Below, one piece after another: positions 28,910 to 33,788 of a DNA stretch of 64,000 nucleotides. The position numbers and the translations under genes were made by a program. Numbering within the stretch: position 1 is the stretch's first letter; each line of letters opens with the position of its first letter. Below the pieces are notes generated by a model. It was not told where the DNA came from, made no database searches, and was given only the letters and a program-made list of their open reading frames with translations. Source of the stretch: an uncultured Myxococcales bacterium (GTDB taxonomy: Bacteria; Myxococcota; UBA727; JABDBI01); NCBI GenBank assembly GCA_964368985.1, contig CAYJDW010000004.1, positions 3,046 to 67,045 on the forward strand, given 5' to 3'.

Positions 28910-30225
28910 TCGATCGTGATGCCTTTAGGCAACTGGGCATAAGAATACCCATGCCAGTTTTGTTGCCCATGTTAGGGGTGGTGGCGATCGGTATTCTTAA
29001 TTTATCTTCAGCGGCTCAAGCGACGCGGCCCGATTTATATTTAAGCCAACTCAGCAAGTTTGGCTTTGCTTGTATCCTCATGATGGGGGTCGGGCTTATT
29101 CATACGCGTGTTATCAGGCGCCTGGCTTATCCCGTCTATTTATTTGCATGTTTTTTGTTGCTCATGGTGATTGCCGTCGGTACCAGTGCCAAGGGTGCTC
29201 AGCGATGGTTGGTAATTGGGGCCTTTCGCTTTCAGCCCTCGGATCCTGCCAAAATCGCCCTAGTCTTGGCTTTAGCGCAATATTGCGCCAGTTATTGGCC
29301 GGCCAAAGGCTATACGTTGTTGTCGCTCTTTCGGCCCTTTAATATTTCACGGCCTTTGGGATTTTTGATGCCCATCGTGTTTTTGTTGGTACGTAGCCGC
29401 CATGGTTCAGAGCTTTTTAGCGACGAATGGTTGACTTCGAAATATGGCATGGCGGTCATGGGCGGGCTCTTGGTGCTCGGACTTTTATGGCTGTTTTTTT
29501 CTTTCTTCATGCTCAGCAATGAGCGTTTCCATTTTTCATCATTTGTGGCCCCCATCGACATTGCGATTATTCCCTTTTTGCTGGTGGCGGTGGAGCCAGA
29601 CCTAGGTACCTCGCTGATAATCTTATCTATTGCTGGCATTATGTTTCTTTACGTCGGTATTCGCAGTTATTCTTTGCTCATGGGTTTTGTGTGCTTAGCG
29701 GTAATCAGTGTGGGCTCCTATTTTACCGTCCTGAAAGACTATCAAAAGCAACGGATTACCTCATTTATTAACCCCGAAGCGGATTTGCAGGGTGAAGGCT
29801 ATCACGCCATGCAGTCTATCATTGCCATTGGCTCTGGTCGGGTGACGGGCAAGGGATTTGCCGGGGGTACGCAGACGCAATTATCATTTTTGCCCGAAAA
29901 TGCCACCGATTTTGTGTTCAGCGTATGGGCAGAAGAGTGGGGTTTATTGGCCTGCGTTTTATTATTGGTTTTATATTTCTCAATGCTGGTGTCGATTTTA
30001 CGTATGGCGCCGAGGATCGAGGATAAATTCTCCCAACTGGTGTGCGTAGGCGTTGCTGCCAGCATTTTTCTGCACGTTTTCATTAATGTTGGGATGGTTA
30101 CTGGTATTTTGCCAGTAGTGGGCGTTCCTTTGCCTCTCATGAGCTATGGTGGTTCAGCCATGATGACTACCTTGATTGGGCTGGGCCTTGTGGTAAATGT
30201 GGCTTTATGGCGAGGGGCTAAATAG
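28906..30225 (+). CDS. rodA: peptidoglycan glycosyltransferase RodA (SEDS family)
   Basis: EPDLGT, TDFVFS and PLMSYGGSAMM motifs. Overlaps the mrdA stop. Confidence 0.93.
   Translation: MIDRDAFRQLGIRIPMPVLLPMLGVVAIGILNLSSAAQATRPDLYLSQLSKFGFACILMMGVGLIHTRVIRRLAYPVYLFACFLLLMVIAVGTSAKGAQRWLVIGAFRFQPSDPAKIALVLALAQYCASYWPAKGYTLLSLFRPFNISRPLGFLMPIVFLLVRSRHGSELFSDEWLTSKYGMAVMGGLLVLGLLWLFFSFFMLSNERFHFSSFVAPIDIAIIPFLLVAVEPDLGTSLIILSIAGIMFLYVGIRSYSLLMGFVCLAVISVGSYFTVLKDYQKQRITSFINPEADLQGEGYHAMQSIIAIGSGRVTGKGFAGGTQTQLSFLPENATDFVFSVWAEEWGLLACVLLLVLYFSMLVSILRMAPRIEDKFSQLVCVGVAASIFLHVFINVGMVTGILPVVGVPLPLMSYGGSAMMTTLIGLGLVVNVALWRGAK
30103..30225 (+). repeat. direct repeat copy A (functional 3' end of rodA)
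   Basis: By hand alignment to 33651-33773, about 97 of 117 aligned nt are identical, with one 6-nt indel. Confidence 0.85.
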
Positions 30226-30426
30226 TGAGCTTGCTATCTGGAGCTCATGAAGTGAAAGCTGAAGATTTAAGCATTCCTTGCAGATTGTTCCCTAAGAAAG
30301 GGATTATTAGCTTTTAATAATATCTCTCTATTGTGTTCTTTTTTTAGGGGCCGTAGAAGCCTTCGGTTATAATATTTTAATGCTTGATTGTCTTTGGGCG
30401 AGTTATTAAATTAGTCTTTAAGGAAT

Positions 30427-33400
30427 ATGTTTTTTATAAATAGTGATTATATGATGAAAATTTCCGGGAATATTAATATGGCGTTTATTATTAGCAGCGT
30501 ATCTAAGCTCAGAAAATTACCGACTTTTCTTGTGCTGGCTTCGGTTTTAATTTTTAATGGCTGTAATTTTGAGGATTTAGACGATAGTGAAGAGCCCACG
30601 GGGCCTGAAACTAGTGTTAGTACGCTCAACAAGAATTGTGAAGGCTTTAAGACACCGGGCGAATGCCGTAGCAATAGCAGCTGTCAATATTTTAACAGCT
30701 GGCGGACACCTACAAAAGGGAAGTGCCTTGCCAAAGCTTCTGCCAATAAACTTAGCTGTGGGAAACTGACTAAAGACGATTGTGAGCTTAATGGCTTAGG
30801 CACGGAAAAATGCGTCTTTGCTGGGATATGTCAGCCTGAAAGCGGCTTTAGCGCTAAGGGTTTTAGTAAGCTCAATAGTTTTCATTTAAATGGCACGAAG
30901 GAAAATGACAGAGGTTTTAATAGCGCAGGACTTAATGTTAAGACCGGCAGCAAATATGATGCCCTTGGAATGGATATAGATGGTCGAAATTCGCGGGGTT
31001 TTGATGCGAAAGGCCTTCTCGCCACGGGTTTGGACCGAGATCCACGCGGATTTGATGCGAAAGGCATACACACAAATGGGACCGATAGGGATGATCGGCA
31101 TTTTGATGTAAAAGGTCTACTAGTTGGCGGAGCTGACCGAGATGCTCGGGGCTTTGATGCCGCAGGCCTCCTTGCTGACGGTTCAGACCGAGATTCACGC
31201 GGATTTGATGCCGCAGGCTTCCACAGCAATAGGACTCGGCGGGATGACCGAGGCTTTGATATCCAAGGCCGCTTGCTAAGTGGTGCCGATCGAGATATTC
31301 GCGGCTTTAATGCGCAAGGCTTGCACACCAATGGTAGCGATAGAGATAATCGGGGCTTTAATCGAGAAGGCCTTCATACGAATGGCACTAATCGAGACGA
31401 TCGTGATTTTGACCTTCGGGGTTTGCTTCCGAACTTTGCGCTGCGCGATGCTCGGGGCTTTGATGCTGATGGTCTACTCTGGGACCTCAGTGATAGGGAC
31501 AATCGAGGTTTTAACGCCCGAGGGCTCCATACCAATAATACCGAATGGGACGATAGAGGTTTTAACTTGGCTGGGAGGCAGAGGGATGGCAGTGATCGCG
31601 ACGCTCGCGGCTTCGACTCTGCTGGTTTTCTTCCAACCGGCTGGACAAGAGATGCTCGCGGCTTCGATGCAAATGGCCGACAAAGGGACGGCAGCGATAG
31701 GGATAGTCGCGGCTTCAATCTCCAAGGGCTCCATACCAATAATACCGATCGTGACCCTCGCGGTTTCAATGTTAATGGAGTCCTTCCTGGCGGGGCCCTC
31801 AGGGATGCCCGCGGCTTCAACGCCGACGGAATGCACTCCAATTTCACCTCCAGGGATGCTCGGGGCTTTGACGTTAATGGTATTCACGTCAATGGTAGTG
31901 ACCGAGACGACCGAGGTTTCGACCTCCAAGGGAGACACAGCAATAATTCCGACCGAGATGACCGCGGCTTTGACATCCACGGGTTGCTTGTTGGCGGTCT
32001 AGCGCGAGACCCACGGGGCTTCGATGCCGATGGATTCCTCCCCGACGGGACAGACAAAGACGCACGGGGCTTTAAGGCCAACCGGCGGCTTGCGTGTGGT
32101 TCTTTGGTAGATGTTAATGGCTTTGATGTCGATGGCAACCATGAAACTACGCACGGGCTCCATAACCCAGGTGGTTTTGATATGAGGGGTATTCATCAGG
32201 TCACGGGGGATATCTTTGATGCGCCAGCTCCCGGCGGCCGCACCATTAAAGGGCAAAATCGTTTGGAAGCGAGGGAAGATATCGTTGGGATACAATGCTA
32301 TATCCCTGGTCCCGCGGATTATCTCGGACGACCTGATTTACGCACCATTCAGCATCATCCTGCGGGCTTCGCTGATGCAGAAGCATTTATCCAGGCCATA
32401 GAAAATCGGTGCCAAGCTCTAAATAGGCCGGTTCCACTCGCGCCGGGACAAAGCCTGGCAGACAAAAGAAGCCGCTTAATCGGAGCGATTAAACAAGCTA
32501 ATCCTCTCATACGAGCTTTAGGCGGAGAACCCGCCGATAGCCTCTATACTTTGGAGCGGCCAAATGCGCTGAAAACTTATATTGGTGGTCTCTATAGCAA
32601 TGGCGGTCTTGGAAAATTCAGCAAAACTGGCCGCATTTCTTACCAAATACGTGATGACGCAGGGAATTTGGTTCCAGAAGTCGGAATTGATGCTGGGGGA
32701 CTAAGAAGAGACTTTAAAGATCGCGTCTCTCAACAAATAAAACCTTTGTTTAGTGAGGGCACTAACGGCATGGAAATTAACTCAAATTTTGGTGCAGCTC
32801 CCAACGAATTTGCTTTGTGTACAACGGACGCTCAGGTTCAAAATAAAGAAAACTGCTGGAAAAATGCCGGTGCAGTTTTTGCTAAACTCACCATTATTGA
32901 GGGTGAAGGTGTGCCTCATGTCAGGCTTTCTCATAGCGTGATCCATGGCTTATTGAGGACGCCTTTGGCGGACCCGGTCGATTATCTTGCTCTTTTGAAA
33001 CTTGATAAACCGGATATTTTTGCAAGCCAAATGAGCGGCGTGCTTAATCAGAACAATGCGGGCATTCAGGCTTTAATGATGAATTTCGATGATGTCGGTC
33101 TTGCTGATAGAGATGTGGATGAAACTAACGTCATCGAATATCTCCAGGAATTCGCAAAACATAGCCTAATAAAAAGCGAACAAAGATGGTTTGTCGAGGG
33201 CTTTGAAGAGGTAGTTTCTAATCTCGGGGCTTTTCCTCTCAATGCCAGAACTTTAGCATTATTGTTGCAGGGAAATCCTACTTCCATCGACACGATTGAA
33301 GCGGTTCTAGAAGTGAGCGATGGTTTTGGTCAGCTAAAAACCTGGCTCTTGGAAATAATGAGAGAAAAAATGGACGCCGATCCAAATTCCTCCTTTTTGG

Positions 33401-33618: not shown

Positions 33619-33650
33619 CCATTTTATTCAATCTGCTCACGCCTGCCCCG

Positions 33651-33788
33651 AGTATTTTGCCGGTGGTGGGTATTCCTTTGCGACTCATGAGCTATGGTGG
33701 CTCGGCCATGATGAAGACCTTGATCGGTCTCTTGGTAAATGTGGCTCTTTGGCGACGTGCTAAGTTGCAAATCGTTAAGGCCCCATAG
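33651..33788 (+). pseudogene. orphan rodA 3'-end remnant (direct repeat copy B)
   Basis: Reads SILPVVGIPLRLMSYGGSAMMKTLIGLLVNVALWRRAKLQIVKAP*, compared with the RodA C-terminus GILPVVGVPLPLMSYGGSAMMTTLIGLGLVVNVALWRGAK*. There is no upstream gene body. Its stop lies 5 nt before the pyk ORF. Confidence 0.85.

Follow-up and report, generated by a model that had tools for sequence, protein, structure and literature searches.

The results presented here reveal that in an uncultured Myxococcota lineage a gene encoding a HECT-domain protein was inserted at the 3' end of rodA, and that the insert lies between two diverged copies of the rodA terminus. The locus was studied in a 64,000-nucleotide (nt) stretch of DNA from an uncultured Myxococcales bacterium (contig CAYJDW010000004.1 of assembly GCA_964368985.1), referred to here as the window. 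The arrangement had been proposed in a first reading of the same DNA, the original prediction. The neighborhood is a core operon with the order mreB, mreC, mreD, mrdA (encoding PBP2), rodA, the insert, pyk, skp, lpxD, fabZ and lysS. The copy of the terminus that completes rodA is designated tail A, and the orphan copy next to pyk is designated tail B. The 3.43 kb between the tails consists of a 250-nt AT-rich spacer, one gene of 1046-1063 amino acids (aa) and 33 nt after its stop codon, followed by tail B.

Local alignment shows that the final 118 nt of rodA (30104-30221, the last 39 codons) recur at 33652-33763; the original prediction had placed the recurrence at 33651-33788. Ninety-six of the 112 aligned nt are identical and 16 are mismatched, and one in-frame gap accounts for a further 6 nt; the result is essentially equal to an earlier hand count of 97 of 117 with one 6-nt indel. 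The alignment score of 126 is far above the scores of 300 shuffles (18.1±2.3, maximum 29), and the same pair was recovered by a repeat search (D6 and D8) and by blastn (E=4e-27). The longest identical runs between the tails are 17, 14 and 10 nt, and the repeat ends at the rodA stop codon. A bias toward third codon positions had been noticed in the original prediction, and 13 of 19 substitutions do fall at third positions. Tail B starts 33 nt past the HECT stop codon, which is located at 33616-33618 as predicted. In frame, tail B reads SILPVVGIPLRLMSYGGSAMMKTLIGLLVNVALWRRAKLQIVKAP followed by a stop. It matches Pfam FTSW_RODA_SPOVE only at profile positions 320-352 of 356 (28.1 bits, cut-off 26.4). 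The orphan had been described as an intact RodA C-terminus. The translation and the Pfam match agree with that description, but the stop codon is lost (now TTG), two codons are deleted and rodA homology ends at about 33763, such that 33764-33788 is read-through. Likewise, the statement that the orphan ends 5 nt before pyk holds for a GTG at 33794 but not for the likely pyk start, the ATG at 33806; this ATG is conserved among relatives, and other assemblies also call it. An origin of the orphan from an FtsW paralogue was rejected, as the orphan is 80% identical to the RodA tail.

Three other assemblies carry the insertion: L001, an ENA scaffold 99.9% identical to the window, and L012 and L013, which come from other samples. 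The flanks in L012 are 96.6% and 94% identical to those of the window, and the orphan tail in L012 and L013 has the same 6-nt deletion and differs from that of the window at 1 nt. Given that independent assemblies share the arrangement and the orphan tail, an assembly artefact was rejected, and the structure is real and arose before these strains diverged. Among named genomes, the nearest is "MAG: Myxococcota bacterium isolate MAG_886" (RodA 84% identical; MAG, metagenome-assembled genome). In four lineages, with RodA identities of 87% (L002-L008), 84% (L009/L015), 80% (L095) and 76% (L096-L098), pyk lies 15-36 nt past the rodA stop codon; the flanking genes are the same, the HECT gene is missing and rodA has only one tail. 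The ancestral rodA-pyk junction implied by the original prediction is thus found in four outgroup lineages (L002, L009, L095 and L096), and none of these HECT-less relatives has a second tail. In more distant relatives (RodA 63-65%), pyk does not follow rodA. A tree of PBP2, RodA and Pyk has the topology (L096,((L095,L002),(L009,(window,L012)))). Since the empty-site lineages are paraphyletic around the carriers, the insertion is derived, requiring one gain instead of at least three losses, and it occurred in the common ancestor of the window strain and L012.

Tail B, not tail A, is attached to the native downstream sequence. It continues unbroken into a spacer that resembles most closely, and can be aligned with, the rodA-pyk spacer of the sister lineage L009; a ...TCGTT..AG....AGTGTTRAARGCAATG motif is common to the two. 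The sequence downstream of tail A matches nothing in relatives. Tail A encodes exactly the same peptide as the rodA tails of the empty-site relatives. Only tail B carries the replacements V>I, P>R, T>K and G>R, a two-codon deletion in the last transmembrane segment and a change of the stop codon to Leu, which occur in 0 of 60 RodA homologues. The changes private to tail B fall at 2 first, 3 second and 2 third codon positions, plus the indel, as expected without selection. Given that tail B is collinear with the native spacer and carries changes unseen in functional RodA, it is the displaced resident end of rodA, now a pseudogene fragment, as had been proposed. Tail B is out of frame with the HECT gene and lacks an evident ribosome-binding site; it is probably untranslated.

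The insert is best described as a single-gene insertion, in agreement with the original prediction. The HECT gene is the only real open reading frame (ORF) between the tails, the others being out-of-frame readings of an internal repeat array, and HECT is the only Pfam match in the insert. No match to an integrase or transposase family was found in the insert or in any ORF of at least 150 aa in the 64-kb window, which extends an earlier statement about the 3.4 kb to the whole window. A repeat search revealed no terminal inverted repeats at the ends of the insert, and the window contains no phage or plasmid genes near it. The phage, plasmid and IMG/VR collections do not contain the HECT gene; tblastn to plasmid and phage sequences gave only a repeat-region match in a Fusobacterium record, and a degenerate rodA-tail motif has no match in IMG/VR viral contigs. 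The repeat that flanks the insert (118 nt, 86% identical, synonymous distance [dS] 0.66) is not a short identical target-site duplication of the insertion sequence (IS) or transposon type. The word element, used in the original prediction, is therefore not supported: a recombinase, terminal inverted repeats and a short target duplication are all absent, and the insert shows no sign of being self-mobile. The window matches no Rfam family and contains no tRNA gene. A comparison of composition, proposed along with the original prediction, places the HECT gene within the backbone range, both in codon usage and in GC content at third codon positions (GC3; 0.43 versus 0.447±0.053, z about -1.2). Composition was thus rejected as evidence of foreign origin, and the GC3 value fits a donor of similar composition. 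A GC peak at 31000-32250 reflects only repeats rich in D, R and G; the repeat array accounts for this peak and for several spurious overlapping ORFs.

It seems moderately probable from the pattern of substitutions that tail A was brought from another lineage, and that both ends had already diverged as working rodA ends. This reading is favored because the differences between the tails are mostly synonymous. By the Nei-Gojobori method there are 12.5 synonymous and 6.5 replacement differences (dS 0.66; replacement distance [dN] 0.083), and the dN/dS ratio (omega), for which a calculation had been suggested, is 0.13. Tail B is 82.9% identical in nt to tail A and 83.8% identical to the tail of L009, and is no closer to tail A than to the tails of other species. 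At synonymous sites tail B lies nearest to L009, and the synonymous distance to L009 is smaller for tail B (0.56) than for tail A (0.91). A comparison of tail A between the window and L012 revealed 11 synonymous differences up to 30180 and none over 30181-30329, with rodA just upstream about 8% different. A crossover therefore lies inside tail A, the last 45 nt travel with the insert, and 30181-30329 likely marks the limit of the DNA that travels with it. These last 45 nt, identical in both carriers, differ from tail B at 8 of 39 aligned positions. The claim that the replacement 3' end came from a different donor is thus favored, by the omega of 0.13 and by the distance of tail B from tail A, but it is not proven.

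Alternatively, the repeat could have been generated in place. The insertion, through staggered-break repair or a template switch, would have placed copies of about 120 nt from the resident rodA terminus on either flank of the new DNA; the copies would have been identical at the start, after which tail B decayed neutrally while tail A drifted synonymously or was overwritten by other rodA alleles. Such an origin is unlikely, though far from negligible. The even spread of the tail B changes over codon positions, together with the indel, fits neutral decay, and the 11 synonymous differences between the carriers indicate that tail A has been replaced or recombined since the insertion. Moreover, rodA alleles differ by a dS of 0.32 within the clade, and a donor arrangement was not found. 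However, an omega of about 0.5 or more would be expected between such copies. If the copies started identical and only tail B was free to change, 59% of the differences should be replacements, while 34% were observed (binomial p=0.014-0.042). About 5 synonymous differences are predicted from the replacement rate, while 12.5 were observed (Poisson p=0.004, rising to 0.04 if one standard error is added to the rate), such that the synonymous excess has p=0.004-0.04 over the binomial and Poisson tests. The last 45 nt of tail A, although linked to the insert, still differ from tail B, and the repeat stops at the rodA stop codon, a boundary at which a random staggered duplication would not be expected to end. 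In-place duplication is therefore disfavored only at p about 0.01-0.04, and the evidence favors, but does not prove, a replacement end. Several observations weigh against an end brought from elsewhere by host recombination. The codon tests cover only about 39 codons. The rodA alleles of the window and L012 (dS 0.32) are recombining, and tail A was possibly native at first and overwritten later; such recombination after the insertion could obscure the codon tests. Neither a conspecific empty-site strain nor the donor arrangement, rodA-HECT without an orphan tail, was found. The relatives of the HECT gene at L014, L099 and L100 lie in unrelated contexts, with no rodA fragments or flanking repeats, and it is possible that a recombinase acted in trans or has since been deleted. 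Metagenome scans with a pyk-start motif, and protein-guided scans with both HECT alleles, gave no match, and neither a conspecific empty site nor a further haplotype emerged. Polarizing the synonymous changes with outgroups was abandoned, as synonymous sites are saturated (proportion of synonymous differences [pS] about 0.7). Within rodA itself, the tail (30106-30222, codons 401-439) has a lower pS to outgroups (0.53-0.59) than the whole gene (0.69-0.74), which hints at constraint at the nucleotide level, e.g., signals for the downstream pyk.

Two further explanations invoke an element or a loss. In Escherichia coli K-12 the cryptic prophage e14, located in icd, supplies a substitute diverged 3' end and leaves a 3' fragment, icdC, at its far end (PMC13626634). 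There, icd and icdC differ mainly by synonymous changes and a few replacement changes (PMC13626634; Hill et al. 1989 cited there). The insert could be the remnant of such a site-specific element, with a tyrosine or serine recombinase and an attP that mimics the rodA 3' end, the recombinase having been deleted or acting in trans. The layout is exactly that of e14, with an intact icd that reaches into the element and the icdC fragment at the far end (PMC13626634). Homology extends to the stop codon of the target gene, the identical 17-, 14- and 10-nt blocks could serve as a core, and the very different HECT module at the same right junction in L012, described below, could mean repeated use of the site. 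Nevertheless, such an origin is improbable. The 3.4 kb contains no recombinase gene and has no room for a recognizable fragment, and there is none in the 64-kb window. No tRNA, phage or plasmid gene is nearby, and the phage, plasmid and IMG/VR searches, including the motif scan of viral contigs, gave no match. Both carriers have the same left junction and the same decayed tail B, indicating one integration and not repeated ones. It is highly improbable that the HECT gene and both tails are ancestral and that the relatives lost the gene by recombination between the rodA tails. Direct-repeat recombination would delete the gene precisely, leaving one tail and then pyk, and excision of e14, which recombines icd with icdC, provides a parallel. 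Yet this explanation needs at least three independent losses in place of one gain. In addition, tail B shows only about 8% decay of the non-synonymous type, yet synonymous sites between carriers and outgroups are saturated (pS about 0.7), such that the insertion is much more recent than the separation of those lineages.

The insert probably arrived by host recombination through rodA homology, the most likely route given the absence of a recombinase, a terminal inverted repeat or a foreign composition. About 3.4-3.5 kb with the single HECT gene entered the chromosome at the rodA 3' end. The incoming DNA would have carried its own rodA terminus, such that rodA stayed intact, and the resident terminus was pushed 3.5 kb downstream, still abutting the native spacer and pyk, and has decayed without selection. 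The donor would then be a related lineage that already had the HECT gene behind rodA. A close relative is suggested because the substitute rodA end encodes the exact peptide of this genus-level group. The route may have taken one of two forms: a circularized fragment may have integrated by a single crossover in the tail of about 120 nt, giving direct repeats on both sides, or recombination anchored in rodA may have been combined with an illegitimate join at the position matching 30104. Later, the HECT gene may have been spread or reshuffled among strains by homologous recombination, with one crossover near 30180 in tail A. The presence of a duplication may reflect selection, as only those events that left both rodA and the sequence leading into pyk undamaged would survive. 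In E. coli, roughly 25 perfectly identical nt are needed for efficient RecA-dependent exchange. Tail A and tail B share no identical run above 17 nt; therefore, loss of the HECT gene through recombination between the tails should be rare.

Between the window and L012, PBP2, RodA and Pyk are 99.1% identical and the N-terminal 370 aa of the HECT protein are about 95% identical, with eight repeat units (408 nt) fewer in the L012 allele. The C-terminal 470 aa, which contain the whole HECT domain, are 37.5% identical (window 32198-33646 versus L012 11313-12781). This divergence is comparable to that among HECT family members from unrelated contigs, which share 30-39%. Nucleotide similarity to L012 resumes at 33647, 5 nt before tail B. 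Since the orphan tail is only about 8% decayed, an identity of 37.5% cannot have arisen in place, and by comparison of the two alleles one strain must have imported the HECT 3' module from elsewhere. Both strains share the junctions and the decayed tail B, which points to one original insertion followed by replacement of the module. The replacement ends close to tail B, which may reflect repeated exchange of cassettes at the site. It is conceivable, although quite improbable, that the rodA-pyk junction is a fixed docking site that exchanges HECT effector modules without an element-encoded recombinase and is kept variable by selection. The homology arms would then be the two rodA tails and the conserved repeat region of the HECT gene. 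If true, the junction would represent a recombinase-free effector cassette locus kept variable by selection. Over a longer range, the window (20478-31544) and L012 (1-11067) form a mosaic, with 0 mismatches over 20478-22877 and then 2-9% per 200 nt. The mosaic identity and the rodA dS of 0.32 are evidence of what appears to be frequent recombination between diverged strains.

The inserted gene encodes a eukaryote-type HECT protein, judged by its sequence matches. The HECT profile (Pfam PF00632) is matched with 108.6 bits (cut-off 23.9) over profile positions 35-305 of 306. Among PDB sequences E6AP is the best match (9e-10), followed by UBR5 and HUWE1. The PDB matches at E<=1e-3 were 53 chains of eukaryotic HECT proteins and a single capsid protein, and none was SopA or NleL; the protein is therefore not of the SopA/NleL type. 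The putative catalytic cysteine, C1031, lies in ...LPVAHTCSLTIDVPPY... in an H-T-C context, is invariant between both alleles, and is in a region that aligns to the C-lobe of E6AP. The N-terminus is a signal peptide ending in Cys, and the repeat units are RDxRGF(D/N)xxG-like, 17 aa long and present in about 19 copies. The product is probably a secreted, lipid-anchored E3 ligase. All six relatives (P0121-P0126) have a lipoprotein-like signal peptide ending in Cys. Relatives on other contigs are located at L014 132-1853, L099 2971-3636 and L100 16669-17859. These contigs carry housekeeping genes, plus neighbors that include an IBR and pentapeptide protein, an ankyrin protein and a leucine-rich repeat (LRR) protein. 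In L100 the HECT gene is surrounded by transposases.

The HECT gene has two candidate starts. The first ATG of the ORF lies at 30427 (1063 aa), while other assemblies call the ATG at 30478 (MAFIISS...). The 1046-aa product from ATG 30478 is more likely, as this start is called in L001 and matches the L012 allele and the start of P0122. The HECT promoter is presumably located in the AT-rich spacer (30226-30477). A promoter and terminator scan of 29900-34000 gave counts not above shuffled sequence, with no site between rodA and the HECT gene on the + strand and none between the HECT gene and pyk. Since no terminator-like site separates the HECT gene from pyk, pyk is now probably co-transcribed with it. 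RNA folding revealed no significant structure (z of -1.6 for the orphan-tail region and -0.3 for the spacer). Just past the pyk stop codon, at 35253-35340, is an inverted repeat with 23-nt arms that are 91% complementary and 42 nt apart; at the pyk-skp interval L009 has instead an extra 175-aa ORF on the opposite strand. Pfam gave no match at E<=1e-3 for nine ORFs of the window (166-776 aa). The coordinates of all features are collected in the table.

Table. Features of the rodA-pyk locus and ORFs of the window without a Pfam match (positions are those of the window)
Feature	Coordinates	Strand	Evidence or remark
rodA (SEDS glycosyltransferase), intact, 439 aa	28906..30225	+	Pfam PF01098 E=2e-85, 287 bits; C-terminus identical to relatives P0002, P0003
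Tail A, working rodA 3' end (last 40 codons and stop), left repeat copy	30104..30225	+	peptide identical to empty-site relatives
Last 45 nt of tail A and first 104 nt of insert, identical in window and L012	30181..30329	+	mismatch map
AT-rich insert-specific spacer, without counterpart in relatives; 35% GC over 30226-30426	30226..30477	+	
HECT-domain protein gene	30427..33618	+	Pfam HECT E=6.4e-31 over aa 794-1062
51-nt (17-aa) repeat array inside HECT gene, 54% GC	30903..32143	+	repeat family D1, 19 copies
Variable 3' module: linker, HECT domain, 28 nt after the stop codon	32198..33646	+	strain L012 version 37.5% identical in protein
Right insert end, HECT stop codon to tail B	33619..33651	+	only last 5-15 nt common to L012
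Tail B, orphan decaying copy of rodA 3' end; frame open to 33788	33652..33763	+	stop codon changed to TTG
Native rodA-pyk spacer, contains CAAATCGTTAAGGCCCC	33764..33805	+	alignable with spacer of sister lineage L009
pyk (pyruvate kinase); ORF opens also at GTG 33794	33806..35245	+	Pfam PK E=1e-110, PK_C; start as called in L001/L012
ORFs without Pfam match	560-2890 (largest, 776 aa, minus strand), 6026-6697, 13018-13518, 13775-14626, 41920-42936, 46140-47039, 48807-49604, 57926-59128, 60132-60647		

The locus illustrates how a eukaryote-type effector gene entered a core cell-wall operon (mreBCD-mrdA-rodA-pyk) without a mobile element and without breaking its neighbors. The insertion is dated and polarized, rodA stays intact owing to its duplicated end, and the HECT gene should not be lost easily now that the copies have diverged. 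It also provides a rare study case in uncultured Myxococcota of a putative family of secreted HECT ligases whose catalytic half is drastically different between near-identical strains. The duplication follows the known pattern of icd and e14 and opens no long-standing question; its novelty is a single cargo gene without a recombinase. The HECT lipoprotein family and the exchange of its module are more interesting than the duplication itself.

Finally, the locus can be compared with known systems. Like the eukaryotic HECT E3 ligases (E6AP/UBE3A, HUWE1, UBR5 and the NEDD4 family), the product matches the HECT model over nearly its full length and has a Cys about 30 residues from the C-terminus. 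Unlike them, it is a bacterial protein in which the domain is preceded by 17-aa repeats and by a signal peptide that ends in Cys. O-antigen and capsule loci hold variable cassettes between conserved genes that are exchanged by homologous recombination. As in those loci, the HECT alleles of near-identical strains have a central segment with 37.5% protein identity that stops sharply at conserved flanks. Unlike in those loci, the variable unit is half a gene, the right flank is a pseudogene fragment and only two alleles are known.

Homology-facilitated illegitimate recombination and Campbell-type single crossover are routes defined in the laboratory in studies of natural transformation. As in these routes, one stretch of homology, the rodA end, would anchor foreign DNA without an enzyme of the element, and a crossover with a circular molecule gives direct repeats. 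Here the homology is only about 120 nt, neither an intermediate nor a donor was seen, and the route is deduced from the absence of other machinery. The locus differs from an IS or transposon in having no transposase and no terminal inverted repeats. It resembles e14 (and phage 21) in icd in that the insertion lies in the 3' end of a housekeeping gene, the gene is intact and the displaced 3' fragment forms a direct repeat. However, e14 is about 15 kb, has its own integrase and excises on SOS induction, whereas the insert described here is 3.4 kb with a single cargo gene and no recombinase or phage genes. Unlike icdC, the orphan described here has undergone an in-frame deletion and no longer ends in a stop codon. 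Because the defining recombinase is absent, the locus is not assigned to the e14/icd class; it is like the class in outcome, but probably not in enzymology.

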